From Dictyostelium discoideum (lineage: Eukaryota), in the NCBI GenBank assembly GCA_000004695.1, contig CM000153.2, positions 3,552,001-3,616,000 on the forward strand: 64,000 bases of DNA. Reading direction: 5' to 3'. Below the pieces are notes generated by a model. That model was given only the letters and a program-made list of their open reading frames with translations, had not been told where the DNA came from and did no database searches. This document shows positions 1,333 through 54,324 of the stretch, piece after piece. The position numbers and the translations under genes are program-made. Every line of letters begins with the position of its first letter. The stretch's first letter is position 1.

Positions 1333-2032
1333 ATGAAATTTATTATAATTTTAATTTTTATATATTTTATTAATAATATTAATGGATCTGTAATTAGGTT
1401 ATTAACATTTAATAATGATCAATGTGGTGGTGAACCATATAATATTATAACTAAAAATATATGTTCTTCTAAAGGTTGTTTTAAAATATCACCAGATAAA
1501 AAAATAATTTATGGTATGAGTTTAACATCAAATGAAAGAATAGTTTCAGGAAATAATATTGGAGAATGTATTAAATTTGATAATTCATCATCGCTAATTG
1601 AATATCAAGAAACCAATAATTTATATTCATTTGAAGGTTATTGTAATGAAATTATCACAGATTCATCAACAACTACAAATAATAATAATAATGAAAATAT
1701 TGAAGATTACAGTTGATTCATTAAAAGGTGAATATTGTGGATTTAATTCATCATCAAGCCAAGATTCAAATTATTTCTATTTTAAGAAATCATGTAATTT
1801 AGAAAATGGTATTATTACTCTATCAAATTGTAAATCATGTTTATCTGGTGACAAAAATTGTAAAATTATTCAAACAATTCAAACAAAAACTCAAACAACT
1901 TGCACATCAATTATATCATCTAAAAAATATACTTATCATAATATTTTTGATAATAATTCAAATATTTTAAATAATAATTTTAATTTTTTAACATTTTTAT
2001 TATTGTTAGTAATAATTTCTTTAATTATTTAA
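1333..2032 (+). CDS. Small secreted cysteine-containing protein with hydrophobic C-terminus (GPI-anchor-like; possibly ponticulin-like). Two ORF-track ORFs (1333..1716 and 1598..2032) joined either by a putative 76-nt intron (about 1637-1712, gttatt...acag) or by a frameshift.
   Basis: N-terminal signal peptide MKFIIILIFIYFINNINGS, then conserved Cys spacing (CGGEPY...C..KGC...C). The second frame continues VDSLKGEYCGF...CNLENGIITLSNCKSCLSGDKNCK...TCTSI and ends in a hydrophobic tail LTFLLLLVIISLII. Splicing 1636|1713 joins the two frames in phase (G|TT = Val). Confidence 0.45.
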
Positions 2033-2120
2033 TACTTTTAAAATAAAAAATAAAAATAATTCTAAAAACATTTAATTTTTTTTTTTTTTATTATTATTTA
2101 TTTATTTTTTTTTTTTTAAT

Positions 2121-2260
2121 TTACAACTCTAATTATACTAACAACGGGTTGATTAAGTACTTTTCTAATTGGACCACTTGCTGAAAAGAAAGAGAAAAAC
2201 ATTGAACAAATGAAAACTATTATAATTAATTGCCATGGTAAAGTCATTGGAATTGGTAAC
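2121..2260 (-). pseudogene. Truncated duplicate of the 3'-terminal coding segment of the FtsX-like permease gene at 2545-6120 (a gene-end fragment with no upstream exon).
   Basis: About 95% nucleotide identity to 2550-2690. On the minus strand it would encode ...GPIRKVLNQPVVSI..VV.* but the similarity stops abruptly at 2260. Confidence 0.5.
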
Positions 2261-2335
2261 AAATTAAAATTTTTCTTTTTATGGGATTTTTGGGTTTAAT
2301 AAAAAATTAAATTAATAAAAAAAAAATTAAAACTA

Positions 2336-2544: not shown

Positions 2545-4771
2545 TTAAGTTACAACTCTCATTATACTAACAACGGGTTGATTAAGTACTTTTCTAATTG
2601 GTCCAAAAGCTGAAAAGAAAGAGAAAAACATTGAACAAATGAAAACTATTATAATTAATTGCCAAGGTAAAGTCATTGGAATTGGTAACATTGTAAATAA
2701 TTGTCTTTGAAGGATCATTGTGAAACCAACAGTTGAACCAATAAACATACCCAACATTGAGGAAGCCATAACCAATACGAAAGCTTCATAGACGTAAATT
2801 CTAATCATCCAAGATTTTGGTATTCCCAATGCACATAAAACACCAATTTCTTTAGTTTGTTCTAAAATATTTGAATATACAGAAGACATTAAAGAGAAGA
2901 AAGAGATGGTCATTGCTAAAACTGTAGTAAAACTGAAAAAGTATTGAATGATCACAGAGGCCGTTGCAAAAGGTTTAATCTTTTCATAGTAATCCAACAT
3001 ATCGAAATCCTCTCTAAGATTACCAATTAAAAAGCTATTTAAACGATTCTTTATTGATTCTACAGCATCTTTATCATCAGTATTCAATTTCAAAATCACT
3101 TGATTCATTGGAATTTCACGTACTGATGAGAAGATACTACTTGCATACGAGAGATAAGTTGGAAATGATACGATTGAATCTTGATTTGTAACTGATGGGA
3201 ATTTAGAGAATTTAAAAGATGGTGCGCTATCTAACATTGCCGATGGTTTAACTAAGTGTCTAGTGGAATTAACTGATGAAGCTTCACCAGATTTAATATT
3301 TAATTGTAATAGGAATGATTGATCAATTGAAGCACCAATAACATCGGTATACAATGAACCAATGATTATCTTTTGACCACTAGTAAATGAATAGATTTGC
3401 TCGGAAAGATATTGAATATCATTCAAACTATAATCAGGATCAGGAGCGATTGAGCTTGCCTTTAAGAATCCAGGTAAAGTAGTAGCGAATAAGTTTGGAG
3501 AAATCGCATACATATTGGTGCCATCACTATAGATATGACCAATGTTTGTAATTTGAGATTGTTGATATTGTTTAGTCATAATTGAGAAAGATGAAGACTC
3601 CCAAGCGTAATCTTCAATCTCTGGTTGATATTGTGAGAGGAATTGATCGATTAACAAAGTTGACTCTGGTTGAAAGAATGGTTCACTACTTTTCACACTT
3701 AGATAACTACCATAGCTTTGTTGAACTTGATAATTCATTGATGCCTGTTGCATAGAGTATGAAACATTGACAAAGATAATGAATGCCAATGAAACTGCAT
3801 ACATGATAGCGGTCTTTCTATTTCTAAGTTTATGAGCTATTAAATTCTTTATAACCAATGATTTGATAGCACGTTTCTCCCAAAAGAAGAATAGATTAAC
3901 TACAGCCCTCTCTAGAATCTGTTCAACATTTAATGCTAAACTAACCAACCCCAATAACATTGCAATCAACAACATGAAGAACATATTTAAAAGTAGTGTC
4001 AAATTGAATGAAAGCAACGACAATGGGAACACATAATAAATTCCAAAGCCAAACACAGACAACAATGAGCCAATCAATGCAACCGATGATGAGAAACTGT
4101 TATCTTCACTACGTTCAATTGAGATTTGTACAGCGGCAGTCTTTGAATGTTTCACATCTAAAGAGTCATGTAAATTCTTACCCAATGCATTACGAATTGG
4201 AAAGATTGCCGACGCTATTGGAATTATAATACCCAATGCCGATGCTAACAATATGGCTTCACCTGTTAATTTTGGTGGAATTGGTACGCCAGTAATTGAT
4301 TTGAAAATAGCAGAAACAATGAATCCAAATACTTGAGCAATTAATAAACCTAAACCCCAAGATGGTACACTATAGGAGAATGCTTTGAATAGCATCAATT
4401 GAATAATACCATTTCTTGTTGTACCAATCATTCTCATTACACCCATTTCAAAGGTTCTAGTCTCTACATCAATCATCAACAATGAATAAATCAATAGAAT
4501 CGATAAAAACAATAGAATGAATATGATTACATTCAAAATCAAACCTAAAAATAATGCTACATATCTATTCTTTGAAAGTTCACTCATCACTGGTAATTCT
4601 GATGAAAGTTCATTAAATCCAACTTTATATAAAATTTTATTTGAAAAATCTACAATCTTTTCTAAAATTACATCTTGATTTGAATTAATATATGGTGTTA
4701 ATCTTGATGGTGGTAAATTTATAATAACTTGTTTTGAATAATCATAAAAATTAATTTTTGAAATATAACTT

Positions 4772-4810
<39 letters not shown>

Positions 4811-5996
4811 AAAAATTAATATATATATATATAATTTTTCCCCGATTTTTTTTTAAAAAAAAAAAAAAACAATATTAAATAAACTTACTTTTTTGAATTA
4901 TAATTCATTTCTGGATCAAATTGTGTAATTAAAAATGGTAAAAATGTTGAATATTCAATGATTATGGAAGAACTTTGATCGGATGGGAACTTACCTTCAG
5001 AAGAAGAGAAAGTATCAGCAACAGTTGCTGTTGCATAAATTACGGGTATGGTTGAAGAGGTGATATTGGCATGAGTCCAAATTGATGATAGAAATGATCT
5101 AGTTGGAATACGAATGAATATTGTATCACCCTTTGAAATTGATAATTTATTTGCTAAATTCTCTTGAACGTAAACTGTACCCTGTGGTGGAGCATCCAAT
5201 TTCCAATCACGACCTAATCCCATCCTCTTTTCACGTGCAGTATCAATCACAAACATCGATGCTTTACTTGCTACTGAATTACTACAAACTGATTCGAAAC
5301 AGTATGGTTCACATTGATTTGGCTCATCATGATATTTCCAAAGATTATCATTTGGATTTGTGTTACCGTTTGGACACGACTTTGCACTAACCACACTAAC
5401 AGTCCCATCGACTCTTGGTGAATGGTAACTATCATCTACTTCTTCTAATTCATATTGATTATTATTATTATTATCATCAAAATAACTTCCATTTGGTTCT
5501 TTATATGTACCAGCTAATAACTCTGATAACATTGTATAATTTAATTGATCTGATAATGTCCATGAACCAGGTGTCAACACCATATCCATTTCACCAACAC
5601 TTGCTTCTGACAAACTTAGGAATACCACTGGTGTGTTGGTGATGATGGAAACACATAGTGACACTATAAACACTACCAAGAAGCATGCGGAAAATCCTAA
5701 CAAATAGGATAACTTATTACGTAGATTGATTCTTAATGTATGTGAAAAGAAATGTTTCCAATGGTAGAGTAATGTTCTAAACCAATTCACTATCTTCACT
5801 TTTACTGTATCACCATTTATTGCATTTGATATACCCTTGAATTTACCATAAGGTTTACTTGATATTTTCTTCTTAATTTTACCATTGTCATCATAATTAT
5901 CTTTATTTTTTAAAAATGTTTGTTCTTCTGAATTTTCTATAAATTCATCAAAACTATCGCTACTACTACTACTACCATTACTTTTATTTATTTTTA

Positions 5997-6036
<40 letters not shown>

Positions 6037-6120
6037 ATCTCTTGATTTTATAAAATCATCATCTTCTTCATCATCATTATTATTTATAGATTGATATTTA
6101 TTATTCCTTTTATTTGTCAT
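2545..6120 (-). CDS. MacB/FtsX-type permease-like polytopic membrane protein with two FtsX (DUF214) modules and no ABC ATPase domain; about 1100 aa. This is a divergent member of the tandem family, called here the second-half ABC-transporter permease-like protein. Exons about 6120-4889 and 4768-2545, with an intron about 4888-4769 (gtaagt...ag) that splits a codon (AA|G).
   Basis: The ORF-track pieces 4885..6120 and 2545..4590 are on the same strand. The upstream piece ends at a GTAAGT donor and the downstream exon actually starts at 4768 (KYISKINFYDYSKQVIINLPPSRL...VMSELSK...). The first module reads RNKLSYLLGFSACFLVVFIVSLCVSIITN followed by a large extracytoplasmic domain and then LLIYSLLMIDVETRTFEMGVMRMIGTTRNGIIQLMLFKAFSYSVPSWGLGLLIAQVFGFIVSAIF, a classical FtsX TM2-4 signature. 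The second module ends EQTKEIGVLCALGIPKSWMIRIYVYEAFVLVMASSMLGMFIGSTVGF...GPIRKVLNQPVVSIMRVVT*. Confidence 0.7.
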
Positions 6121-6717
6121 TATTTTTTGGTTTCTATTTTTTTGTTTCTTTTTTTAATAGTAATATATATACATATATAAAACTATTTTTTATTGTTTAT
6201 TTTAATCTTTTTTTATTTTTTTTAGGATTTTTGAAAAAATTTAAAAAAAAAAAAAAAAAAATTTAAAGATTATGTCAGTGAAATTTTGGTGGTGTTATTT
6301 GTATTTAATTAAAAAATTTGTGTGGTATAAATTCTGGAAAAAAAAAAAAAAAAATTAAAATAAAATTTAAAAAAATAATAATAAAAAAAAAAAAAAAAAC
6401 TAATAATATAAATGGGGTATATTAATAATTGTAACACTTTCAGATATGTAAAAAGTAATAACACTGAAAAAAAAAAAAAAAAAAAAAAAAATTAGGAAAA
6501 ATAAATTGAAAACTTAAAAAAAAAAAATAAAAAATAAAAAAATAAAAAAATAAAAAAAAATCTTTTAATTTTTTTAATTGTAACCATGATCCAATAATCT
6601 CTAAATTTTTTTTTTTTTTTTTTTTTTTTTGGTATCGTTTTCTAATTATTTGTTTTAGATGACCACCTGTCATTTCCTTCAGATTGCAATCAATAATTAA
6701 AATCAGATTATTAAAAA

Positions 6718-6786
6718 AAAAAAAATAAATAATATAAAATAAAATAAAATAAAATAAAATAAAATAAAATAAAATAAAATAAAATA
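6718..6786. repeat. (AAAAT)n microsatellite, about 13 units.
   Basis: aaaataaaataaaataaaat... read directly. Confidence 0.9.
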
Positions 6787-7538
6787 AAAACATCAAAAAA
6801 TAAAACTGAAAATAATTAAAATATTTTTTATATTTTTTTTTTTTTTTTTTTTATAAAATTGATAAACAATTTAATTAACAAACAATTTTTTTTTTTTTTA
6901 TTCACTTACAATTTTATTTTTGCACACCACTTTTTCTTTTTATTTTGGCCTAAAATTATAAAAAAAATATCTTTTTTAAAAAAGATTTTTACATTTTTTT
7001 TTTTATTTTTTTTTTCTTTTTTTTCTTTTTATTTTTTTATTTTTAATTTTTTTTTTTTCAATTCATTTCATTTCCATTATTTCTTTAAACTTATTTTTTT
7101 TTTAATATAACCCTTTTTATTAAATATTTGTAAACAATGAATCAATTAGGTATGTTTTAAGACTTTTATTTTTTTATTTATTTTTATTTTTATTTTTTTT
7201 TATTATCATTATTTTCTTTAAAATATTACTAACCATAAATTTATTTCTATAGGATCCGGACCAACAAAACAAGGAGTTGCAACAAATACAGGTTCAACTG
7301 GAACTACTAAAAATAATAGCAACCTTAGTGGAAAAGGTTGGGTTCTTTAGGTTTTTTGATGATCTTTTCTTTATTGTGAAATTACTTACCATCATCAATT
7401 TTTGTTGATTGATCAAAAAAAAAAAAAAAAAAAAAAAAAGTATGCAAATTACTTTTATAAATATATTTTTAGAATATTTCAAGTTTTCTAATCAAAACAT
7501 AGTTTTTTTTTTTTTGTATTTTAGAATTAATGTATAGA

Positions 7539-7593
<55 letters not shown>

Positions 7594-7920
7594 CCAATAA
7601 ATAACAGAACATTTCTAATTCATTATTGAAAAAAATATAAAAAAAGTAATCAAATGAATATAATATAAGGTATAATTTTAATATTAGTTTTAATCTTAAA
7701 TTTTTTTTTTTTCCAATTAATATTCACAATCAAATTTATATTTAAAAAATAAAAACAGTAAATTTGGAAACAAATCAAAAGAAATAAATTTGTTTTTTGT
7801 TTTTTTTTTAAATAGTTTTATTTTAAATAATAAAAATAATAAAATAAAAAAAAAGTAATAATTAAATCTTTCAGTTCTTTTATTTTACTTTTTATTTTAC
7901 TTTTTTTTTTTTAAAAAAAA

Positions 7921-10900
7921 TTAATCTTTTAAAACTGTTATGATTGATTGTTTTAATAAATGTCTAATTGGAGAAATTACAGAAATGATTGAGACAATTA
8001 AAGATGAAATAAAGAGTATAGGAATTAATTCCCATTGAATTGAAAATGGTATAATTTGTTGATCCATCATTGATTGTTTTAATAGAATAATATAGCTAAT
8101 GAAAAGACCAATAATAATACCAATTATACAACTACCAAATGAAAGTGTAAAAGCTTCGATAATATAGATTTTATAGATTTTAAAATTTGATAAACCAATT
8201 GATCTTAGAATACCAATTTCTTTTGATTGATTTTTAATACTTGTAAACATTGATGAAATTAATGAAAATGATGATATTATTATAGAGATTACTGTTGCGA
8301 AATCAAACAATAATGAATTTAATTTATCTGAACTGTTTGATGAATCTTTATATCTAATTATATATGGACTTTCAGAGTTTTTATTAAATAAACAATTTTT
8401 TGAAATTTTATATTGTAAAGAATCGATTTTATCGTCATCTAATGATTTTGGTTTAATTAAAATTAAATTAACTGGTATATTCCTAACTGAATCAATATTA
8501 CCACCTGATAATCCGACATATGCTGGAAAAGAAGTAATTACACTTTGAGTAAGATCTTCATCCGGAATTTCAGATACACTAAATGTACCTGCAGTTTTTA
8601 AATATGCTAATGGTTTCACTATATTTCTACCCATCCAGTTGAATGTTACATTATGTTTTTGACTTCGACCTGATGAATAATCTATTCTTCTATAGTTATT
8701 AATTTCAATATAATTTGATAATATAAATTCATCTGGTCCACCTTTTTCATCAAGATACATTAATTTCTTTTGAGATTGAGTTAATATTAATTTATTCATT
8801 GAATCTTTGCTATATAAAATCGTTGATAAATCAGTCATATCACCATTTTGATTAAAATCAACATCTTTATCAGTTTTTAAATTTTTTGAAACTGATGAAA
8901 CTTGAAAATAATCTTCCATTATTTCACTGAAATAAGTTGGGCCAACTGCATGTAATGATGATTTTAATGTTACACTTCTAGCAAAATCAGAAACATATGA
9001 TTTCTTATCATCGGGTTGAGAAAATTCACTAAATTTCATTGATCTTAATGAATAACTATCTAATTCATCATTATTTTCATCATCTAATATACGATCTAAA
9101 CATAGAGTTATATTTGATAAATCTTCTCTGGTGATAAAGGAACCAGTTTCAATCTTTAAAAGTGAACCAAACGATTGTTTCTCATTAGCATTTGCAGTTT
9201 CAACTTGAATTAAATATAAACAATTAATTATAATTATTAAAGATACTGAAACACCAAACATAAACATTGTACTTTTATTCTTTTTCTTGTGAGAAATTAA
9301 ATTTTTATATAAAATTATTCTGATTATATTTTTTGCAAAAGGATCTATTAAAGTAATAATGTAAACTAATGTTTTTGAAATGATTAAATGGAAATTCATC
9401 ATTAAGAAAATTGCTGATATTAAAACTAAAATTAACAATCCAAATAATAATGCTAATAATGAACTAAAATTACCAGATAATAATAATTTTGGTAATAAAA
9501 TACAACCAACTATACCTAAAGCGCTTAATGACAAACCAATCCATGATAAATACTTTCTATATTCTGAATCAGTTGAATCTTTATCAATTGTTGTAATTTG
9601 ATGTGATGATGATATATTTGATCTACTAGTATCCAATTGCTCACCTAATGAAAAACTTAATGCTTTTCTAATTGGTAATATCAATGATACCATTGGTATT
9701 AGAAAACCAAGTAAAATTGAATAAACAATTGAATCTACTGTTAAATAATTTGAAATTTCATCTGAATTTGTAAAACGTTTTAATTGATCTATAATTATAA
9801 ATAAAAAGATTTGAGAAATTATTAAACCTAATATAATTGATGGGACTGTGAATATTATTGTTTTTGAAACTATTAGCTCGATGATGAAACTAAATTTAGC
9901 ACCTAACATTCTAAATACACCGTTATTAAATGTCATTGAATCCACATCAATCATTAATGTTGTATAAATTAAAAGAATTGATAATAAAAGGAATACAAAA
10001 ACTATTAAATTTAATAATTGACCTAAATTACTTGAAACTTCGTTACTCTTGTATAATTCAGTCATTATTGGTGTTGAAATATCAACTCTACCAACACCAA
10101 TTTTGTAAACTAATTTCGAGGCAACTTTATTTACTCTTTGTAAAGTTTTATCTAAATCTGTACCATAATACATTGGCAATCTGGGGGATGGAAATTTCAT
10201 AACTATATTTTCAACATATTCTTTTATATTTTTATTTTTCATTAAATCTACATTCCATGTTGGATTTACTTGTTCAACCATTGAATCATAGAATGAGTCA
10301 ATATCTATTAAAACTGATGGTATTATCTCACCCAATTCGAAACCTAGTTCAAATGGATTCTCTGTATTATTGAAAAATCCATTAACTTTTAATTTTGTTA
10401 TTATATATGGTGATTTTTCAATTTGAGTTGTTGAAATCATTGAATCTGTTAATAATGTTGATAATAATCTAACTGCTGGTACTATTATAAAAATTTCATC
10501 ACCAACATTTGCATGGATTGATTGAGCAAGTGATTCTATAATTAAACATGTTCCTTTTGGTTGTGATCCATAACCAAATGTTGATTTTATACCCATATCA
10601 TTCTCTTTTTTAAAATCTAGTAATTGGAAACCCATAAATACATGATTTCCTTCACCACTACATCTATTAATAAAACAAGTGCTCTCTGTGCAATTTAAAC
10701 CACTCCCATTTGAAAAGTATCTTGATTCAATATTATCTTGTACAACTTTTTCACAATAACTTACTGGATATCCATATGTATCTATAAAATTAAATCTTGG
10801 TGAATTATTTTTAAAAAAACTATTTTTATTACTAATACCACTACCACTATATAATCCATGGGTATTCTTTTCATCAGCTCCAACTCTATTATCATCTTTT

Positions 10901-11643
10901 ATTTCTCTAGTTGTATCATTTAAAATTTGATCAAATAATGTATAATTTAATCTTATAGTAAAACCTTTTTCTAAATCTATTGAAAGTTGTTGTTTTCCTG
11001 ATATTATTAAATCTATATGATTAGCATCAGAATCTGCTTTACTTAAAAATATTAATGATATATTTGATAATACTGATAAACCAGTTGCAACTAAAATTAC
11101 TACTAAAAAACATGATATAAAACCAATACTATAATTCAATTTACTCCTTTTAATACCATTTATTGAATATTTAATTATTGAAAACCATTCTCCAATAGTT
11201 GTATTAAATCCAATATTTGTTAAATTTATTTGAATCTTTTTTAAAATAAATCCAAAATATTTTAAAAATTCTAAACTTCCAAAAATTAATATTATAAAAA
11301 ATTCCAAAAAAACAAAAATTCCTTCAATTATTATTTTAAGTTTATTGAAAAAATAATTCTCTTTTTTAATATTATTATTATTATTATTATTTATATTATC
11401 ATCATAATAATAAATATTGTCACCTTGACAATCATTTTCAAGTGATCCTTTTAAAATTGATAATTCAATTGGGTCACATTCACCAACACTCTCTCTCCAT
11501 TTATTATAAAATTTTTTATTAATTAAAATTGGATCATTCTCATTCCTATTATTTATAGAACTCTTTAAAATTGAACTATTTTCATTGATGATACTATAAT
11601 CACCATCATCATTATCATTCCCACTTGATTCATAATTATACAT
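7921..11643 (-). CDS. MacB/FtsX-type double-permease-like membrane protein, paralog A; 1240 aa, apparently a single exon.
   Basis: A full-length ORF. The first module, GIKRSKLNYSIGFISCFLVVILVATGLSVLSNISLIFLSKADSDANHIDLI, follows the MacB TM1 pattern (R.K..L..LGI.IGVA.V....G......S.I.S.G.N.I.I). It is followed by a ~400 aa Cys-containing extracytoplasmic domain and the FtsX core LLIYTTLMIDVDSMTFNNGVFRMLGAKFSFIIELIVSKTIIFTVPSIILGLIISQIF. The second module has a TM, a large domain and NQSKEIGILRSIGLSNFKIYKIYIIEAFTLSFGSCIIGIIIGLFISY. Confidence 0.8.
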   Translation of the reverse strand: MYNYESSGNDNDDGDYSIINENSSILKSSINNRNENDPILINKKFYNKWRESVGECDPIELSILKGSLENDCQGDNIYYYDDNINNNNNNNIKKENYFFNKLKIIIEGIFVFLEFFIILIFGSLEFLKYFGFILKKIQINLTNIGFNTTIGEWFSIIKYSINGIKRSKLNYSIGFISCFLVVILVATGLSVLSNISLIFLSKADSDANHIDLIISGKQQLSIDLEKGFTIRLNYTLFDQILNDTTREIKDDNRVGADEKNTHGLYSGSGISNKNSFFKNNSPRFNFIDTYGYPVSYCEKVVQDNIESRYFSNGSGLNCTESTCFINRCSGEGNHVFMGFQLLDFKKENDMGIKSTFGYGSQPKGTCLIIESLAQSIHANVGDEIFIIVPAVRLLSTLLTDSMISTTQIEKSPYIITKLKVNGFFNNTENPFELGFELGEIIPSVLIDIDSFYDSMVEQVNPTWNVDLMKNKNIKEYVENIVMKFPSPRLPMYYGTDLDKTLQRVNKVASKLVYKIGVGRVDISTPIMTELYKSNEVSSNLGQLLNLIVFVFLLLSILLIYTTLMIDVDSMTFNNGVFRMLGAKFSFIIELIVSKTIIFTVPSIILGLIISQIFLFIIIDQLKRFTNSDEISNYLTVDSIVYSILLGFLIPMVSLILPIRKALSFSLGEQLDTSRSNISSSHQITTIDKDSTDSEYRKYLSWIGLSLSALGIVGCILLPKLLLSGNFSSLLALLFGLLILVLISAIFLMMNFHLIISKTLVYIITLIDPFAKNIIRIILYKNLISHKKKNKSTMFMFGVSVSLIIIINCLYLIQVETANANEKQSFGSLLKIETGSFITREDLSNITLCLDRILDDENNDELDSYSLRSMKFSEFSQPDDKKSYVSDFARSVTLKSSLHAVGPTYFSEIMEDYFQVSSVSKNLKTDKDVDFNQNGDMTDLSTILYSKDSMNKLILTQSQKKLMYLDEKGGPDEFILSNYIEINNYRRIDYSSGRSQKHNVTFNWMGRNIVKPLAYLKTAGTFSVSEIPDEDLTQSVITSFPAYVGLSGGNIDSVRNIPVNLILIKPKSLDDDKIDSLQYKISKNCLFNKNSESPYIIRYKDSSNSSDKLNSLLFDFATVISIIISSFSLISSMFTSIKNQSKEIGILRSIGLSNFKIYKIYIIEAFTLSFGSCIIGIIIGLFISYIILLKQSMMDQQIIPFSIQWELIPILFISSLIVSIISVISPIRHLLKQSIITVLKD

Positions 11644-11651
11644 TTATCTGT

Positions 11652-11685
<34 letters not shown>

Positions 11686-11709
11686 GAAAATGGTTAGCAC
11701 TTCTTTCCG

Positions 11710-11743
<34 letters not shown>

Positions 11744-12506
11744 ACTGATTATTTTTTGACTTTTTTTTAAATTCTTTTATTTTTAATTCCCTAATTTTTT
11801 TTTTTTCTTTTATTTTTTTTTTTTCTATTTTTTTTTTTTTACTTTCTGATTATATTTTTTTTTTACTTTTTTTTTTTTTTACTTTCCGATTATTTTTTTT
11901 TTTTAAAAAAAAAAATAATTTATTGGTCTTTCAATTTTTTTTAAAAAGTAAAGAAAAAAAAAAAAAAAATAAGTGTAAAATTTAAAGTTTTACAAATGAT
12001 TGCAAATGTGTCTAGAAAATAAAAAAAAGAAAAAAAAAAAAAAAACGAAAATTAGTTTTGAAATAATCTTGTTTTTTAGGGATTTTCTTGAAAACACAAA
12101 AAACTATTAATCCCGAACCTTTAAAATTTTGAAAAATTAATTATTTTTTTTTTTTTTACTTTTATAATTATTGCTCCATTTTAAATCGATATTTTTATAT
12201 TTTTAGAAAAAAAAAAAAAAAATAAAAATAAAAGAATTAATAATGTAAAGAAAAAGCCAATTATAGATCAAGAGATTTGAGGGGAATGTTTTTTTTTTTT
12301 ATTATAATCATTTTTTTTATAAATTTCCTATTTTCTTGAAAAAAAAAAACTGCAAGGCACTGTAAAGAAAATTTTTTGGTCTGAGGAATAGTGTTTTATT
12401 TTTTTAATTTGGATTTTAATTAAAAAAAAATAAAAATAAAAATAAAAAAAATAATAAAAGCCTGGAAGAATTTGGACAATCACTTTGTGGTTCCAGAAAA
12501 AACTAT

Positions 12507-12567
12507 ATCATAAATTATAAAAAAAACCTCAGAAGATACAAGGAAATTCTTTGAAGATCCAATCACT

Positions 12568-12608
<41 letters not shown>

Positions 12609-12728
12609 ATAATTATCCATAAAATACAATAAAACAAATAAAATATTTTTATTCTTAATTTTTTGAAAATCTTCAAGGAATTTCCTTGTATCTTCTCAGA
12701 GGTTCTTTTTATAATTTATAATATAGTT
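12507..12728. repeat. Inverted repeat with ~55-bp arms (about 12507-12563 and 12672-12728) separated by a ~105-bp A-rich spacer, lying 25-240 bp 3' of the stop codon of permease paralog B.
   Basis: Left arm tatcataaattataaaaaaaacctcagaagatacaaggaaattctttgaagat. Reverse complement of right arm ataaattataaaaagaacctctgagaagatacaaggaaattccttgaagat. There are 3-4 mismatches over about 50 bp. Confidence 0.75.
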
Positions 12729-12750
12729 TTTTTTTTTTTTTTTAAAGAAA

Positions 12751-15700
12751 TTAATCTTTTAAAACTGTAATAATTGGTTGTTTTAATAAATGTCTAATTG
12801 GAGAAAATACAGAAATGATTGAGACAATTAAAGATGAAATGAAGAGTATAGGAATTAATTCCCATTGAATTGAAAATGGTATAATTTGTTGATTCATAAC
12901 TGATTGTTCCAATAGAATTGTATAGCTAATGAAAAGACCAATAATAATACCAATTATACAACTACCAAATGAAAGTGTAAAAGCTTCGATAATATAGATT
13001 TTATAGATTTTAAAATTTGATAAACCAATTGATCTTAGAATACCAATTTCTTTTGATTGATTTTTAATACTTGTAAACATTGATGAAATTAATGAAAATG
13101 ATGATATAATCATTGAGAGTACAGTTGCAAAATCAAAGAATAATGAATTTAATTTATCTGAACTATTTGATGAATCTTTATATCTAATTATATATGGACT
13201 TTCAGAGTTTTTATTAAATAAACAAGTTTCTGAAATTTTATATTGTAATGAATCAATTAAATCGTCATCTAATGATTTTGGTTTTAATAAAATTACGCTA
13301 ACTGGTATATTCCTAACTGAATCAATATTACCACCTGATAATCCGACATATGCTGGAAAAGAAGTAATTACACTTTGAGTAAGATCTTCATCCGGAATTT
13401 CAGATACACTAAATGTACCTGCAGTTTTTAAATATGCTAATGGTTTCATTACATTTCGACCAATCCAATTGAAGGTTACATTTTGTTGTTGATTTTTACC
13501 AGATGGATCAATTTTTGTATAATTATTAATTTCAATATAATTTGATAAAAGAAATTCATCTGGACCACCTTTTTCATCAAGATACATTAATTTCTTTTGA
13601 GATTGAGTTAATATTAATTTATTCATTGAATCTTTACTATATAAAATCGTTGATAAATCAGTCATATCACCATTTTGATTAAAATCAACATCTTTATCAG
13701 TTTTTAAATTTTTTGAAACTGATGAAACTTGAAAATAATCTTCCATTAATTCACTGAAATAAGTTGGACCAACTGCCCATAGTGATGATTTTAAAGTTTT
13801 AGTTTTAGCAAGATCAGAAACAATTGATTTCTTATCAGGTTGAGAAAATTCACTAAATTCCATTGACCTTAATGAATAACTATCCAAACCATTATTTTCA
13901 TCATCGATTATTCGATCTAAACATTGAGTTATATTTGATAAATCTTCCCTTTTTATAAAGGTACTGGTTTCAATCTTTAAAAGTGAACCAAAGTATTGTT
14001 TATTTGAAGCATTTGAAATTTCAACTTGAACTAAAAATAAACAATTAATTATAATTATTAAAGATACTGAAACACCAAACATAAACATTGTACTTTTATT
14101 CTTTTTCTTGTGAGAAATTAAATTTTTATATAAAATTATTCTAATAATATTTTTTGCAAAAGGATCTATTAAAGTAATAAGGTAAACTAATGTTTTTGAA
14201 ATGATTAAATGGAAATTCATCATTAAGAAAATTGCTGATATTAAAACTAAAATTAACAATCCAAATAATAATGCTAATAATGAACTAAAATTACCAGATA
14301 ATAATAATTTTGGTAATAAAAAACAACCAACTATACCTAAGGCGCTTAATGATAAACCAATCAATGATACAAACTTTCTATATTCTGAATCAGTTGAATC
14401 TTTATCAATTGTTGTAATTTGATGTGATGATGATATATTTGATCTACTAGTATCCAATTGCTCACCTAATGAAAAACTTAATGCTTTTCTAATTGGTAAT
14501 ATCAATGATACCATTGGTATTAGAAAACCAAGTAAAATTGAATAAACAATTGAATCTACTGTTAAATAATTTGAAATTTCATCTGAATTTGTAAAACGTT
14601 TTAATTGATCTATAATTATAAATAAAAAGATTTGAGAAATTATTAAACCTAATATAATTGATGGGACTGTGAATATTATTGTTTTTGAAACTATTAGCTC
14701 GATGATGAAACTAAATTTAGCACCTAACATTCTAAATACACCGTTATTAAATGTCATTGAATCCACATCAATCATTAATGTTGTATAAATTAAAAGAATT
14801 GATAATAAAAGGAATACAAAAACTATTAAATTTAATAATTGACCTAAATTACTTGAAACTTCGTTACTCTTGTATAATTCAGTCATTACTGGTGTTGAAA
14901 TATCAACTCTACCAACACCAATTTTGTAAATTAATTTTGAAGTAAATTCACTAACTCTTTGTAAAGTTTTATCTAAATCTGTACCATAATACATTGATAA
15001 TCTTGGTGATGGAAATTTCATAACTATATATTCGACATATTCTTTAATATTTCTATTTTTCATTAAATCTACATTCCATGATGGATTTACTTGTTCAACC
15101 ATTGAATCATAGAATGAGTCAATATCTATTAATATCGATGGTATTGTTTCACCCAATTCGAAACCTAGTTCATATGGATTCTCTGTATTATTGAAAAATC
15201 CATTAACTTTTAATTTTGTTATTATATATGGTGATTTTTCAATTTGAGTTGTTGAAATCATTGAATCTGTTAATAATGTTGATAATAATTCCACTGCTGG
15301 TACTATTATAAAAATTTCATCACCAATCTTTAATTCTGTTGCTTTAGCCAATAATTCTACCATTAAACATGTACCCTTTGGTTGTGATCCATAACCAAAT
15401 GTTGATTTTATACCCATATCATTCTCTTTTTTAAAATCTAGTAATTGGAAACCCATATATACATGTTCTCCATCACCACCGCATCTATTAATAAAACAAG
15501 TACTCTCTGTGCAATTTAAATCACTACCATTTGAAAAGTACCTTGCTTCAATATTATTTTCAACAATGTTTTCACAATAATTTACGGGATATCCATATGT
15601 ATCTATCATATGAAATCTTGGTGAATTATTTTTAAAATTTTTTTTTTTACTTCCACCACTACTTGAACTCTGGATTATAGTTTCACTAGCTCCAGCACTA

Positions 15701-16383
15701 TTTTCACCTTTTATTTCTATATTCTCTATTTTTTCAAAATTTAAAATTGCATTATTTAAAATTTTATCAAATAATGTATAATTTAATCTTATAGTAAAAC
15801 CTTTATCTAAATCTATTGACTGATGTTGTTTTCCTGATATTATTAAATCTATATGATTAGCATCAGAATCTGCTTTACTTAAAAATATTAATGATATATT
15901 TGATAATACTGATAAACCAGTTGCAACTAAAATTACTACTAAAAAACATGATATAAAACCAATACTATAATTTAATTTACTCCTTTTAATACCATTTATT
16001 GAATATTTAATTATTGAAAACCATTCTTCAATAATTGTATTAAATCCAATATTTTTTAAATTTATTTTAATTTTTTTTAAAATTAATCCAAAAAATTTAA
16101 ATTCTTTTTTTAAAAATTCCAAAGCTCCAATAATTATTGAGGTTAATAATTTAAAAAAATATAAAATTCCTTTGATTATTATTTTAAATTTATTATTTTT
16201 TTTAAAATGATAATCGTTACTGTCACAATCTTCATCAAATGATGTTAAAATTGCATAATTTTTAGTGATGGAATTATCGTCATCATCTCCATCCTCATCT
16301 TCATTACAGTTGTCATTTTCACTTGGTCCATAAAAATTATGCATTTCTATTCTTTTTTTTATTTTAAAATTATTGGTTAGCAT
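12751..16383 (-). CDS. MacB/FtsX-type double-permease-like membrane protein, paralog B; 1210 aa. Its N-terminal ~90 residues are unrelated to those of A and C.
   Basis: Very high identity to 7921-11643 and 17277-21032 across most of its length, with identical stretches such as KSPYIITKLKVNGFFNNTENP and LLIYTTLMIDVDSMTFNNGVFRMLGAKFSF. The N-terminus MLTNNFKIKKRIEMHNFYGPSEND... is different, and the first M could be preceded by a missed 5' exon. Confidence 0.8.
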   Translation of the reverse strand: MLTNNFKIKKRIEMHNFYGPSENDNCNEDEDGDDDDNSITKNYAILTSFDEDCDSNDYHFKKNNKFKIIIKGILYFFKLLTSIIIGALEFLKKEFKFFGLILKKIKINLKNIGFNTIIEEWFSIIKYSINGIKRSKLNYSIGFISCFLVVILVATGLSVLSNISLIFLSKADSDANHIDLIISGKQHQSIDLDKGFTIRLNYTLFDKILNNAILNFEKIENIEIKGENSAGASETIIQSSSSGGSKKKNFKNNSPRFHMIDTYGYPVNYCENIVENNIEARYFSNGSDLNCTESTCFINRCGGDGEHVYMGFQLLDFKKENDMGIKSTFGYGSQPKGTCLMVELLAKATELKIGDEIFIIVPAVELLSTLLTDSMISTTQIEKSPYIITKLKVNGFFNNTENPYELGFELGETIPSILIDIDSFYDSMVEQVNPSWNVDLMKNRNIKEYVEYIVMKFPSPRLSMYYGTDLDKTLQRVSEFTSKLIYKIGVGRVDISTPVMTELYKSNEVSSNLGQLLNLIVFVFLLLSILLIYTTLMIDVDSMTFNNGVFRMLGAKFSFIIELIVSKTIIFTVPSIILGLIISQIFLFIIIDQLKRFTNSDEISNYLTVDSIVYSILLGFLIPMVSLILPIRKALSFSLGEQLDTSRSNISSSHQITTIDKDSTDSEYRKFVSLIGLSLSALGIVGCFLLPKLLLSGNFSSLLALLFGLLILVLISAIFLMMNFHLIISKTLVYLITLIDPFAKNIIRIILYKNLISHKKKNKSTMFMFGVSVSLIIIINCLFLVQVEISNASNKQYFGSLLKIETSTFIKREDLSNITQCLDRIIDDENNGLDSYSLRSMEFSEFSQPDKKSIVSDLAKTKTLKSSLWAVGPTYFSELMEDYFQVSSVSKNLKTDKDVDFNQNGDMTDLSTILYSKDSMNKLILTQSQKKLMYLDEKGGPDEFLLSNYIEINNYTKIDPSGKNQQQNVTFNWIGRNVMKPLAYLKTAGTFSVSEIPDEDLTQSVITSFPAYVGLSGGNIDSVRNIPVSVILLKPKSLDDDLIDSLQYKISETCLFNKNSESPYIIRYKDSSNSSDKLNSLFFDFATVLSMIISSFSLISSMFTSIKNQSKEIGILRSIGLSNFKIYKIYIIEAFTLSFGSCIIGIIIGLFISYTILLEQSVMNQQIIPFSIQWELIPILFISSLIVSIISVFSPIRHLLKQPIITVLKD

Positions 16384-16794
16384 TTTTTTTTTTTTCTTAT
16401 CTAAAACTTAGATGTTATTTTTATTTTTATTTTTATTTTTATTTTGAAAGAAAATAATAATTTATAAAGTCTTTTCTTTTTTTTTTTATAATTAAAAAAA
16501 GAAAATAAATACAGCTTAAATTTTCATTTTATGTTGCTGACATTGCTTCATTGTAAACCTATCTTCATTTTCAAAAAAAGAAAAGGTGGCACTTCAAATA
16601 TTTTATTTTATTATAAAGAAAAAGATAAAAAACTATTGTCTGTCTGGCTTTTTTTAAGAACTAAGAAAAGTTTTTTGAAAATTTGGTTGATCTAGCCTTT
16701 TTTTTTTTTGTTATTTTTTGGTTTTTATGATAACGATCGAGAAAAAAAAAGTTGTTTATTTTCTAAAAAAAAAAAAAAAAACCAGGTGAGTCAC

Positions 16795-16895
16795 AAGAAA
16801 ATTATGTTTGTGTGAAGGGAGTCCCTAAGAAAATAAAAGTTAAAAAAAAGAGGCGACAAACCCACCAGCGCGGCACAAAATTACTTTTCACTTTA
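16795..16895. repeat. Copy 1 of a ~90-bp dispersed repeat of unknown family (GC-richer than its surroundings).
   Basis: ...gggagtccctaagaaaataaaag..aagaggcgacaaacccaccagcgcggcacaaaattacttttcac... aligns with 57957-58075 (...ggggagtcacatggaaaataaaa..aagaggcaacaaacccaacgctgcataaaatttcttttcac...). Confidence 0.55.
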
Positions 16896-17135
16896 GTTTT
16901 TTTGAAATTTGCATTTTTTTTTGATAAAGATTCAGAAAAAAAAAAATGTTTTTAAAAAAAAAAATGAAATGAAAATAAAAAAAATATATAAAAGCCTGGT
17001 AGAATTTGTATAATCAATAAAAGAAGTTCAGTTACATATAATGAAAAAATTATTTTTAAAACTTTTTACTTTTATTTTTAATTTTATTATTATTTTGATT
17101 TTAAAAAAAAAAAATTATTATCTGATTGTCTTAGG

Positions 17136-17171
<36 letters not shown>

Positions 17172-17276
17172 ATCACCCTTGTTATGATTGATTTCGATTC
17201 GATTCGATTTGATTTAATTTGATATGATTTATTATTATATTATTACTATTTTTATTATTTTTATTTTAAAATAAAA

Positions 17277-20200
17277 TTAATCTTTTAAAACTGTAATAAT
17301 TGGTTTCTTTAATAAATGTCTAATTGGGGAAACTACAGAAATGATTGAGACAATTAAAGATGAAATGAAGAGTATAGGAATTAATTCCCATTGAATTGAA
17401 AATGGTATAATTTGTTGATTCATAACTGATTGTTCTAATAGAATTGTATAGCTAATGAAAAGACCAATAATAATACCAATTATACAACTACCAAATGAAA
17501 GTGTAAAAGCTTCAAAAATATAGATTTTATAGATTTTAAAATTTGATAGACCAATTGATCTTAGAATACCAATTTCTTTTGATTGATTTTTAATATTTGT
17601 AAACATTGATGAAATTAATGAAAATGATGATATAATCATTGAGAGTACTGTTGCAAAATCAAAGAATAATGAATTTAATTTATCTGAACTGTTTGATGAA
17701 TCTTTATATCTAATTATATAAGGACCTGTTGATTTTAGATTAGATAAACATTTTTGACTAATTTTTAATCTTAATGAATCAATTAAATCATAATCTAATG
17801 ATTTTGGTTTAATTAAAATTACACTAACTGGTATATTCCTAACCGAGTCGATATTACCACCTGATAACCCAACATATGCTGGAAATGAGGCTATTACACT
17901 TTGAGTTGCACCTTTATCTGGAATCTCAGATACACTAAATGTACCTGCAGTTTTTAAATATGCTAATGGTTTCATTAAATAACGACCCATCCAATTTAAT
18001 GTTACATTTTGTTGTTGATTTTTGCCAGATGGATCAATTTTTGTATAATTATTAATTTCAATATAATTTGATAATAAATATTCATCACTACCACCTTCTT
18101 GATCAAGATACAATAATTTCTTTTGAGATTGAGTTAATATTAATTTATTCATTGAATCTTTACTATATAAAATCGTTGATAAATCAGTCATATCACCATT
18201 TTGATTAAAATCAACATCTTTATCAGTTTTTAAATTTTCTGAAACTGATGAAACTTGAAAATAATCTTCCATTAATTCACTGAAATAAGTTGGACCAACT
18301 GCAAATAATGATGATTTTAAAATTCTAGTTCTACCAAGATCAGAAACCGTTGATTTCTTATTATCAGGTTGAGAAAACTCACTAAACTCCATTGATCTTA
18401 ATGAATAACTATCTAAACCATTATTATCATCCATTAAACCATCTAAACATTGGGTAATATGTGATAAATCTTCTCTAAGTAAAAATGTTTCTGTTTCAAT
18501 CTTTAAAAGTGAACCATAGTATTGTTTTCTAGAAGCATTTGCAGTTTCAACTTGAACTAAATATAAACAACTAATTGTAATAATTAAAGATACAGAAATA
18601 CCAAACATAAACATTGTACCTTTATTCTTTTTCTTGTGAGAAATTAAATTTTTATATAAAATTCTTCTAATAATATATTTTGCACCAGGATCGATTAAAG
18701 TAATAAGGTAAACTAATGTTTTTGAAATGATTAAATGGAAATTCATCATTAAGAAAATTGCTGATATTAAAACTAAAATTAACAATCCAAATAATAATGC
18801 TAATAATGAACTGACATCACCGGATAATAATAATTTTGGTAATAAAAAACATACCACTATACCAAAAGCACTAATTGATAAACCAATCAATGATACAGAC
18901 TTTTTAAATTCTGCATCTTTTGAACCTTTATCAATTGTTGTAATTTGATGTGATGATATTTTTGATCTACTAGTATCCAATTGTTGATTTAATGAAAAAC
19001 TTAATGCTTTTCTAATTGGTAATATCAATGATACCATTGGTATTAGAAAACCAAACAAAATTGAAAATAGAATTGAATTTACTGTTAAATACTTTGAAAT
19101 ATCTGCTGAATTTGATATACTCTTTAATTGATCTACGACTATAACTAAAAAGATTTGTGAAATTATTAAACCTAATATAATTGATGGTATTGTGAAAATT
19201 ATTGTTTTTGAAACTATTAGCTCGATGATGAAACTAAATTTAGCACCTAACATTCTAAATACACCGTTATTAAATGTCATTGAATCCACATCAATCATTA
19301 ATGTTGTATAAATTAAAAGAATTGATAATAAAAGGAATACAAAAACTATAATATTTAATAATTGACCTAAATTATTTGAAACATCTTTGCTCTTGTATAA
19401 TTCAGTCATTACTGGTGTTGAAATATCAACTCTACCAACACCAATTTTGTAAATTAATTTTGAGCAATAATCACCCACACGTTGTAAAGTTTTATCTAAA
19501 TCTGTACCATAATACATTGATAATCTTGGTGATGGAAATTTCATAACTATATATTCGACATATTCTTTTAAATTTCTATTTTTCATTAAATCTACATTCC
19601 ATGTTGGATTTACTTGTTCAACCATTGAATCATAGAATGAGTCAATATCAATTAATATAGATGGTATTGTTTCACCCAATTCAAAACCTAATTCATAACC
19701 TAATTCGTATGGATTCTCTGTATTATTGAAAAATCCATTAACTTTTAATTTTGTTATTATATATGGTGATTTTTCAATTTGAGTTGTTGAAATCATTGAA
19801 TCTGTTAATAAAGTTGATAATAATTTAACTGCTGGTACTTTTAAAAAAATTTCATCACCAATCTTTAATTCTATTCTTTTAGCCAATGATTCTATCATTA
19901 AACATGTACCCTTTGGTTGTGATCCATAACCAAATGTTGATTTTATACCCATATCATTCTCTTTTTTAAAATCTAGTAATTGGAAACCCATATATACATG
20001 TTCTCCATCACCACCACATCTATTAATAAAACAAGTACTCTCTGTGCAATTTAAATCACTACCATTTGAAAAGTACCTTGCTTCAATATTATTTTCAACA
20101 ATGTTTTCACAATAATTTACGGGATATCCAAATGCATCTATCATATGAAATCTTGGTGAATTATAATCAAAATTATTAAAACCACTACTATCACCACCAA

Positions 20201-20685
20201 TAAATAAACTATTGAAACTATTAGCTTCATTCAATTCTATTAATTTTTCAAAATTTAAAGTTGCATCATTTAAAAGTTGATCAATTAATGTATAATTTAA
20301 TCTGACATCAATAATTTCACCTAAATCTATTGATTGTTGTTTGCCTGATATTATTAAATCAATACCATAGGCATCAGAATCTGCTTTACTTAAAAATATT
20401 AATGATATATTTGATAATACTGATAAACCAGTTGCAACTAAAATTACTACTAAAAAACATGATATAAAACCAATACTATAATTCAATTTACTCCTTTTAA
20501 TACCATTTATTGAATATTTAATTATTGAAAACCATTCTTCAGTAATTTTAAAAAATCCAATATTTCTTAAAATTAATTTAATCTTTTTTAAAATTATTTT
20601 AATCCTTTTTAAAATTGATTTAAAAAATTCTAAAATTATTATTATTATTTTTATTATTATTATTTTAAATTTTTTTATATATAAA

Positions 20686-20716
<31 letters not shown>

Positions 20717-21032
20717 CATCTTCATCATTATTATTATTATTATTATCATTTGATGATTTTTTAAAATCTGATAATTCAACTTGACTATATTCACCAACAC
20801 TATCTCTCCAATTATTATAATATTTTTTGTCACTAATTAAAATTGTATCATTTTCATTATTTTCACTCCTTTTCATTGCACTTGTTAATATTGAATTATT
20901 ATTGTTGAGGTTGTTTTTATCCTCATCGTCATCATCGTCGTTATTATTATTGTTATTGTTTTCTTCATAATTATTTACACTATCTTCATTATCGTTAGCA
21001 CTTATTCCAAAATAATTATCATTTTGAACCAT
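17277..21032 (-). CDS. MacB/FtsX-type double-permease-like membrane protein, paralog C; 1251 aa.
   Basis: A full-length ORF with the same architecture and high identity to A and B. The N-terminal acidic, Asn-rich cytosolic region shares KKYYNNWRDSVGE with paralog A (KKFYNKWRESVGE). Confidence 0.8.
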
Positions 21033-24200: not shown

Positions 24201-24243
<43 letters not shown>

Positions 24244-24295
24244 GGTAAAAAATGTCGTTGATATTTTTTTTTTTTTTTTTTTTTTTAAAAAAAAA

Positions 24296-25069
24296 ATGAT
24301 TAAAATATCTTTTACGTTAATACCATTATTTTTATTGTTATTACTATTTTTAAATGATTGTATTGGTTTATATATTTATATGAAACCATTTACAAATAAT
24401 AAATGTAGTGGTGAATCAGAAGGAATTGGATATATTTTTAATCAAAATGAAGATTCATGTATTATTTTATCAAACTCTACAAACCCAATAAATTCTAGTT
24501 TAGAAATCAATGTATTTGGAGAGATTGGATCATTTCAAATTTTTAATTCTTTAAATTGTAAAATCGATTCAAATGATCCAAAACCAATTTCATTTGCATT
24601 TAAAAATAATCAATGTGTTAATTTACCAACAATGTTTAATTATAATTTTAATTCAACAACAACAATAACAACAGAATCACCAATGAATTCATTTAATACT
24701 GATAATGTTAATCAATATTTTCAAATGAACTTAATTTCGTCTCTGAATGAAATTAATCAAATAATTGATCAAGTATATGGTGTAAAGAAATTTCAATATC
24801 AATTATCAAATCAATGTTCAAATTCAAACTTTCAATTAATTCAATTTTTTACAAATAATTTTAATATAACTACTGAAATTAATAATAATAATAATAATAG
24901 TAATAATACTACAATAACCTCAAGCATATTTTGTAATTCCCAAAAAGAACCAACTATTCAGCAATGTCGAAATGGTGCTGACAACCAATGTATATTTGAA
25001 TCTTTATTTTTGCCTTGTTCTGAAATAATTGAAAATGATATTAGTTACAATTTAGTACAAACTTGTTAA
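24296..25069 (+). CDS. Secreted Cys-containing Asn/Thr-rich protein of about 257 aa, with weak resemblance to the 1333-2032 product.
   Basis: The ORF-track entry 24242..25069 begins in a translated poly-T tract. The plausible start is the M of MIKISFTLIPLFLLLLLFLNDCIG (signal peptide). Its motif NNKCSGESEGIGYIFNQNEDSCIIL resembles NNDQCGGEPYNIITKNICSSKGC of the 1333 gene. Confidence 0.45.
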   Translation: MIKISFTLIPLFLLLLLFLNDCIGLYIYMKPFTNNKCSGESEGIGYIFNQNEDSCIILSNSTNPINSSLEINVFGEIGSFQIFNSLNCKIDSNDPKPISFAFKNNQCVNLPTMFNYNFNSTTTITTESPMNSFNTDNVNQYFQMNLISSLNEINQIIDQVYGVKKFQYQLSNQCSNSNFQLIQFFTNNFNITTEINNNNNNSNNTTITSSIFCNSQKEPTIQQCRNGADNQCIFESLFLPCSEIIENDISYNLVQTC

Positions 25070-25439: not shown

Positions 25440-29748
<4,309 letters not shown>

Positions 29749-52797: not shown

Positions 52798-53126
52798 ATT
52801 TTTATTTATAAAAAAAAAAAAAAAAAAAAAAAAAAGTGTAAATAATAAAACTATATAAAAATTAAAAACCATTTTTTATAATTATAGTTTGATTTAATTA
52901 AATCAACTTGGTGGTTTAAGTATATTATAAAAATAGAAAAATTAAAATTATTTTTTTTTTTTTCCAAATCTTTTCATTTTCATTTTTTTTTTTTTTCATT
53001 TTTTTTTTTTTTTTTTTTTTTTTCAATTTTTATTTTATAATTAATTTCACCCACCAAACACTTCAACATATAATTATATATATATATAATATTTATTTAT
53101 AATTGTATATATATATAATAATAATA

Positions 53127-54231: not shown

Positions 54232-54324
<93 letters not shown>

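Follow-up and report, generated by a model that had tools for sequence, protein, structure and literature searches.

Transporters of the type VII fold within the ATP-binding cassette (ABC) superfamily, including MacB, LolCDE, FtsEX, BceAB and YbbAP, are treated in the literature as bacterial cell-envelope machines. The tables of the consensus ABC classification place MacB (type VII) in the bacterial table and start the eukaryotic one at type IV (PMC8386196), and a 2025 paper on YbbAP makes no mention of eukaryotes (PMC12646458). MacB and LolCDE serve as the paradigm of mechanotransmission, and PMC5985334 cites Khwaja 2005 for the statement that, where two type VII permease modules are fused into one chain, the nucleotide-binding domain (NBD) is always a separate polypeptide. 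YbbAP is a worked example of such a fused permease with a separate NBD, and in its structure the helices between transmembrane segments (TM) 2 and 3 and between TM8 and TM9 are the coupling helices that bind two YbbA NBDs (PMC12646458). A family named 'Eukaryotic ABC3 (E-ABC3)' is listed by TCDB as 3.A.1.207, with homologues reported in Heimdall and MK-D1 archaea (PMC7997004). Here, we characterize a 64-kb stretch of Dictyostelium discoideum AX4 DNA (the window, in whose coordinates all positions are given) that carries an array of four double-permease genes, arranged head-to-tail on the minus strand at 2545-21032 and labelled g1 to g4.

Architecture of the four array products

The four array products are single-chain, pseudo-dimeric double permeases that belong to the type VII (MacB/FtsX-fold) superfamily and are fused in the manner of YbbP. 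Four consecutive minus-strand double-FtsX permease genes had been proposed in a first-pass annotation made from the DNA letters, and both the open reading frames (ORFs) and profile searches bear this out. Pfam FtsX (PF02687) was detected as two stretches in all four products with 90-113 bits (gathering cut-off 25.5 bits) and E-values of 1.7e-25 to 1.6e-32, while neither MacB_PCD nor ABC_tran gave a match at E<=0.1. Intronless single ORFs make up g1 (17277..21032, 1251 residues; DDB_G0285669, UniProt Q54MT7; FtsX E 3.3e-30) and g3 (7921..11643, 1240 residues; DDB_G0285665, Q54MT9; E 4e-32), and both match AX4 proteins exactly. The single 1210-residue ORF of g2 (12751..16383; DDB_G0285667, Q54MT8; E 1.6e-32) is 100% identical to the g2 protein P0052; the database model has 1197 residues, its start being placed 13 codons inside the ORF. 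At about 22% GC, roughly 9% of random codons are calculated to be stops, and intact ORFs of 1200 codons are therefore not attributable to chance. The AX4 annotation already recognises the FtsX/'ABC3 permease' domain in the genes, whose products it lists as hypothetical, UniRef names g1-g3 'ABC3 transporter permease C-terminal domain-containing protein', and orthologues of other dictyostelids are annotated as 'DUF214 family protein'.

The fourth gene, g4 (2545..6120, 1151 residues; FtsX E 1.7e-25), consists of two ORFs joined across an intron. Exon 1 (4889..6120) ends at a GTAAGT donor at 4888 and encodes the N-terminal extension, TM1 and most of the first ectodomain. It is followed by an extremely AT-rich GT..AG intron of 120 nt (4769..4888) and by exon 2 (2545..4768), which encodes the rest of the first ectodomain, TM2-TM6, TM7, the second ectodomain and TM8-TM10 and carries both FtsX stretches. 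Splicing restores the frame and yields a product colinear with orthologues; the junction is in register with P0001, the g4 orthologue independently annotated in another D. discoideum strain. Exon 1 is 98% identical to P0001 and 71% identical to the D. purpureum orthologue.

Profile alignment showed the two modules of the proteins, N- and C-terminal, to be homologous (hhalign probability 95.9%, E 5.7e-9, 267 columns). The motifs quoted in the first-pass annotation, RSKLNYSIGFISCFLVVILVATGLSVLSNISLIF, NCTESTCFINRC and LLIYTTLMIDV...GVFRMLG, were all found in g1-g3, and hydropathy analysis indicated about 10 strong hydrophobic segments per protein. AlphaFold2 models were computed for the g4 type, using P0001 with a 47-sequence alignment (mean predicted local distance difference, pLDDT, 79; predicted template modelling score, pTM, 0.71), and for g2, using P0052 (pLDDT 72, pTM 0.62). 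The g4-type model starts with a disordered N-terminus (residues 1-105), an amphipathic helix before TM1, TM1, a mixed alpha/beta ectodomain (ca. 178-470) and TM2, continues through a cytoplasmic helix (518-527), TM3, TM4, a disordered loop and two linker segments (640-706), and ends with a pre-TM7 helix, TM7, ectodomain 2 (ca. 766-1006), TM8, a second cytoplasmic helix (1052-1060), TM9 and TM10. The g2 model has the same layout of 10 TM (4+2+4), two mixed alpha/beta ectodomains and two coupling helices.

The ectodomains are smaller than the ca. 400 residues per module given in the first-pass annotation, measuring about 300-335 residues for the first and 240-290 for the second. Of the Cys-containing ectodomains described there for both modules, only ectodomain 1 has a conserved four-Cys cluster, in which C257, C283 and C288 are invariant across the family and C278 is conserved in at least 90% of sequences (P0052 numbering). 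Based on the N-in topology expected by analogy with YbbP and on these four conserved cysteines, we infer that the ectodomains would face the cell exterior or the endocytic/phagosomal lumen. The N-terminal extensions are acidic and Asn-rich, as described earlier, and appear as disordered low-complexity regions in the models. In g1-g3 they carry an extra, strongly hydrophobic stretch (g1 residues 116-148, g2 66-91, g3 100-134, the last at about 11242-11346) that neither g4 nor other homologues possess. AlphaFold2 draws it as one long helix of low confidence (pLDDT 57-68); should it span the membrane, the N-terminus would lie outside.

Foldseek searches of the PDB returned E. coli YbbP as the top match for both models. 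The g4-type model matched 9ge7_A over its full length (E 6.8e-21, 1061 columns, template modelling score 0.61 normalised to the target) and the g2 model matched 9ge6_A (E 1.3e-17 over 1118 columns), with target-normalised scores of 0.55-0.61 for the two models. After YbbP, both matched LolE/LolC, BceB, MacB, HrtB, YtrF and FtsX, and MacB, LolC/E, HrtB, YtrF and FtsX were matched at probability 1.00. The 4+2+4 models and the full-length YbbP matches fit a two-module pseudo-dimer.

Like YbbP of YbbAP-TesA (PDB 9ge6/9ge7, PMC12646458), each array protein combines two MacB-type 4-TM modules and two linker TM in one 10-TM chain, with ectodomains at TM1-2 and TM7-8, coupling helices at TM2-3 and TM8-9 and an unfused NBD. 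Unlike YbbP, the array proteins are 350-450 residues longer and possess larger ectodomains, the four-Cys cluster and a long disordered N-terminus, and they reside in a eukaryotic membrane. Neither a ybbA- nor a tesA-like gene adjoins the array, in contrast to YbbAP-TesA, though such linkage is not expected in a eukaryote. Orthology with YbbP was rejected, as the family profile aligned to E. coli YbbP with an hhalign probability of 11.6% over 66 columns of the FtsX core only.

Other known systems share parts of this plan. MacB (of MacAB-TolC) and LolCDE have the same 4-TM FtsX-fold module with a TM1-TM2 ectodomain, stalk helices and a coupling helix, but in MacB an NBD is fused at the N-terminus and the homodimer acts together with MacA and TolC, and LolC and LolE are separate single-module chains instead of one double-module protein. 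Assignment to MacB was discarded in view of the missing fused NBD and MacB_PCD match and a score of 23 bits against the cut-off of 966 for PRK10535, and assignment to LolC/LolE in view of 21-29 bits against cut-offs of 362-540 (TIGR02212/TIGR02213). BceB, the permease of BceAB-type systems that sense antimicrobial peptides and confer resistance to them, likewise joins two FtsX-fold modules in a single chain of 10 TM, has its NBD (BceA) as a separate protein and is a structural match (E 1e-10 to 5e-12); it has one large ectodomain (TM7-8) where the array proteins have two, and BceB-type membership was rejected. The best NCBIfam match of the g4 type, the duplicated FtsX permease ADOP of Acidobacteria (TIGR03434, about 800 residues), was also rejected with 25-37 bits against a cut-off of 622. 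As judged by sequence profiles and models, the array proteins form a family of their own that shares the YbbP architecture and the type VII fold. The porters of TCDB 3.A.1.207 are eukaryotic and of MacB/FtsX type, as are those described here, and we presume that the four genes belong to that family, with which the UniRef name of g1-g3 is consistent.

Coupling helices and a putative ATPase partner

Family conservation was measured on the 47-sequence alignment. Columns conserved in at least 90% of sequences occur at densities of 0.43 and 0.36 in the two coupling helices compared with 0.02-0.03 in the ectodomains. Of the 35 family-invariant residues, about half are in segments facing the cytoplasm, which comprise the coupling helices and two motifs, PIRxALGxNLxDSLD after TM4 and KNLxAHxxRNxKT before TM7, and all family-invariant residues are kept in g1-g3. 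In g2, the predicted coupling helix 1 (TFNNGVFRM) is encoded at 14728..14754 and corresponds to helix 531-539 in the TM2-TM3 cytoplasmic loop of the P0052 model; it holds the family-invariant F and R, with the invariant G541 two residues past its end. The predicted coupling helix 2 (SKEIGILRSI) is encoded at 13027..13056 and corresponds to helix 1097-1106 in the TM8-TM9 cytoplasmic loop; it holds the invariant K and E and is immediately flanked by the invariant Q1096 and G1107. Translations were checked for both. Since the coupling helices are the most conserved elements across eukaryotic supergroups, they point to an ATPase docking partner encoded at an unlinked locus.

We therefore consider it probable that the array encodes four YbbP-like type VII permeases with extracytoplasmic ectodomains and with coupling helices on which an unlinked, NBD-only ATPase docks, and that they work by mechanotransmission. 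In such a system, a dimer of a soluble NBD-only ABC protein encoded elsewhere in the genome, for which the AbcH class would be a candidate, would bind the two coupling helices. The stalk helices, TM1/TM2 and TM7/TM8, would then relay ATP binding and hydrolysis to the ectodomains. If YbbAP-TesA, LolCDE, BceAB and MacB are taken as analogues, a molecule of hydrophobic or amphipathic nature might in this way be extracted or expelled from the outer leaflet; alternatively, mechanotransmission could drive an extracellular partner.

Several points weigh against this reading. No Walker A, LSGGQ or Walker B pattern was found in six frames of the whole 64-kb window, no fused NBD in 12 homologues scanned (7 of them picked for their long N-terminal extensions), and no ABC gene within 10 kb of a homologue in six eukaryotic contigs. 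MacB_PCD fails to detect the ectodomains and the sequence relation to YbbP is negligible, which makes the functional analogy loose. The coupling helices might be conserved for the sake of folding or for a different cytoplasmic partner. Relaxed constraint would likewise fit the ratio of nonsynonymous to synonymous substitution rates (dN/dS) of 0.6 that g1-g3 show. The link to AbcH is drawn from one literature statement and from the presumed grouping of AbcH.1 given below, and a literature search found no papers on these gene IDs or characterising any eukaryotic member. Per the literature, the AbcH class of D. discoideum consists of NBD-only ABC proteins, and PTHR24220 is a mostly prokaryotic family of ATP-transporter proteins. 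Presumably, AbcH.1 is grouped by PANTHER with the NBDs of LolD/MacB type.

The absence of an ATPase in the window, fused to the homologues checked or adjacent in the six eukaryotic contigs, is also what would be seen if the eukaryotic family had become decoupled from any ABC ATPase, an idea raised in the first-pass annotation, and employed the FtsX fold passively, be it as a receptor or scaffold or in lipid handling or signalling. The disordered low-complexity sequence of the N-terminal extension, the site of the NBD in MacB, fits this explanation as well. That no ATPase is fused or encoded nearby had been stated in the first-pass annotation and stands: besides the motif scan, neither an ABC_tran nor a hydrolase domain was found in ten other large ORFs of the window (including the CfaA-like, GSAP-like, Nop56/58-like, tyrosine phosphatase and talin-like ones), and FtsX domains were detected at these loci where no overlooked NBD exons came to light. 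Eukaryotic genes are not organised in operons. Because the NBD of fused type VII permeases is separate and linkage is not to be expected in a eukaryote, a missing neighbouring ATPase says nothing either way, and the surveys of homologues and contigs show non-linkage to be the norm of the family. The description 'ATPase-less' is hence not supported as a functional claim: fused type VII permeases never carry the NBD, conservation between supergroups is highest in the coupling helices and the cytoplasmic segments next to them, and D. discoideum possesses NBD-only ABC proteins that could serve as partners. We regard ATPase-independence of the family as unlikely, and the missing ATPase as more likely encoded elsewhere than absent.

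A eukaryotic family with distant prokaryotic relatives

Orthologues of g4 were found in D. purpureum (71% identity), Polysphondylium (67%), Cavenderia (57%) and Physarum (47%), and also in Arcella, Mayorella and Diplonema, and in a distance tree the g4 clade branches as the dictyostelid and Physarum species do. When 1.84 billion cluster representatives were searched exhaustively with a profile, 29,256 of them matched at E<=1e-3. At E<=1e-30 there were 1187, representing at least 1187 clusters at 50% identity; the best 150 matches of this search all had E-values below 1e-190. Named carriers include Paratrimastix (Metamonada), Ploeotia (a euglenid), Fabomonas (an ancyromonad), Willaertia and Naegleria (Heterolobosea), Fimicolochytrium (a chytrid) and Planoprotostelium. 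The named taxa span Amoebozoa, Discoba (Heterolobosea, euglenids and diplonemids), Metamonada, Ancyromonadida and Chytridiomycota. From these sequence comparisons, g4 is apparently a conserved and vertically inherited member of a eukaryote-wide family present in most supergroups. The rarity in eukaryotes assumed in the first-pass annotation does not apply to such a family, which TCDB already lists as E-ABC3, and a lineage-specific expansion describes g1-g3, limited to the D. discoideum group, but not g4. One homologue, P0009 of Heterostelium album (1642 residues), shows a Kelch-motif region ahead of the double-FtsX part; this is probably a merged gene model and no real fusion.

Relatives in prokaryotes are remote. 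NCBIfam models for ADOP, LolCE, MacB and FtsX scored 16-37 bits against cut-offs of 250-966, so that no threshold was reached, and sequence matches in the PDB (E 1e-7 to 5e-3) covered the last 120 residues. A combined pattern and tblastn scan of one genome for each of 185,579 prokaryotic species returned 16 loci, all matching the C-terminal FtsX domain only at 20-40% identity. Two of the 16 loci were examined, and each encodes an ordinary MacB_PCD+FtsX permease of one module next to an ABC ATPase.

These results bear on, and do not support, the horizontal acquisition that had been proposed for the array. The FtsX/MacB fold is overwhelmingly prokaryotic and Dictyostelium eats bacteria, and a recent bacterial transfer, or contamination, followed by local duplication would be in line with both. 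However, the array has a composition typical of Dictyostelium (21-30% GC) that is continuous with its flanks, g4 contains a spliceosomal intron, orthologues track the species tree from Dictyostelia to Physarum and beyond, the prokaryotic scan recovered single-module genes aligning over the last FtsX domain, and the bacterial families stay far below their cut-offs. A full-length double-module homologue from a prokaryote beside or inside the dictyostelid clade was not seen. With no close prokaryotic relative found, recent transfer is unlikely, and the complete scenario of transfer or contamination with subsequent duplication is hardly credible.

Two gene types and the history of the array

The array is not made of four like genes. 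All four encode double permeases, as the first-pass annotation had it, but g1-g3 are 79-86% identical to each other at the protein level and only 31-33% identical to g4, which alone bears an intron. The DNA of g1-g3 is 87-92% identical in the coding region only, the intergenic DNA having diverged. Synonymous divergence (dS) among g1-g3 is 0.12-0.19 and dN/dS about 0.6 overall, with 0.72-0.75 in ectodomain 1, 0.35-0.43 in ectodomain 2, 0.18-0.29 in TM8-10 and about 1 in the N-terminal extension. Patches resembling gene conversion were observed in g1-g3 (7921-21032). The TM1 segment is identical in protein sequence in all three genes, and between g2 and g3 the TM2-TM6 block has a dS of 0.013 compared with 0.12 for the whole gene.

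Sequences of the g1-g3 type were recovered from D. discoideum strains, D. cf. discoideum and D. citrinum only. In D. citrinum, a three-copy array occupies the same context, downstream of a CfaA-like gene. The tblastn match of its middle copy (L024 15053-18714) is split at 17311-17356 with overlapping coordinates, which suggests a frameshift or a short intron. No paralogue or array was found within 10 kb of the single g4-type gene in D. purpureum, Cavenderia and Naegleria. The identity of g1-g3 to dictyostelid g4 orthologues (31-33%) is slightly higher than to non-dictyostelid ones (28-29%), and we therefore infer that they derive from a g4-like gene. A midpoint-rooted neighbour-joining tree puts g1-g3 at the root, a placement that we treated as long-branch attraction. 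Only these four AX4 genes of the family were recovered among the matches listed, and D. discoideum appears to keep its whole family complement in one 18-kb cluster.

Elevated dN/dS raises the question of decay, in which g1-g3 would be redundant, degenerating duplicates and g4 the only functional gene. The overall ratio, the value near 1 in the N-terminal extension, the split match in one D. citrinum copy and a relic gene fragment beside g4 are consistent with this. In this relic tandem copy (1860..2280, minus strand), the last 53 codons of g4 and its 3' flank are repeated directly downstream of g4 over about 420 bp; g4 residues 1098-1150 match 2280-2122 by tblastn at 85% identity, the DNA is 84.5% identical by blastn (mean column identity in the alignment 90%), and the fragment overlaps the 3' end of a plus-strand ORF at 1598-2032. 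Nevertheless, the ORFs of g1-g3 (1210-1251 codons) are uninterrupted in very AT-rich DNA, every family-invariant residue is retained, dN/dS falls well below 1 in TM8-10 and in ectodomain 2, and D. citrinum as well as several D. discoideum strains still have the array. Decay is accordingly improbable, and we read g1-g3, on the strength of these sequence comparisons, as a young, fast-diverging but functional tandem expansion limited to the D. discoideum species group.

That ectodomain 1 has evolved faster in g1-g3 suggests a ligand that varies, possibly derived from prey or the environment, although relaxed constraint might account for it too. A further scenario would combine such diversification with loss of the ATPase: an ancient type VII scaffold would have been repurposed in eukaryotes as a surface or phagosomal device, passive or driven by another energy source, that handles lipids or ligands or acts as a receptor, with the ectodomains of g1-g3 diversifying against ligands of prey or environmental origin. 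We consider this repurposing doubtful and favour functional, ATPase-driven permeases for g1-g3 as for g4.

The surroundings of the array are unrelated to it. They include CfaA/B/C-like (24242-25069), gamma-secretase-activating-protein-like (GSAP-like, 26419-29748) and Nop56/58-like (30649-31854) genes, and further away a gene for an FNIP-repeat protein (48764-50200, minus strand) and one for a tyrosine phosphatase (53103-54965). The GC content of the window is 13-30%, except for one 2-kb block at 40%; a talin-like protein with an I/LWEQ domain is encoded at 59827-62073, inside this GC-richest block.

In conclusion, the kind of system encoded here is already known and catalogued, and our analysis confirms the existing annotation; the locus neither represents a novel type of system nor testifies to a function independent of an ATPase. 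It is a reminder that the type VII fold has a large, deeply conserved and catalogued eukaryotic branch in addition to the bacterial cell-envelope machines by which it is known. In the genetically tractable Dictyostelium, the cluster would be a convenient place to learn what role an ABC system of the mechanotransmission kind plays in a cell that lacks a periplasm.

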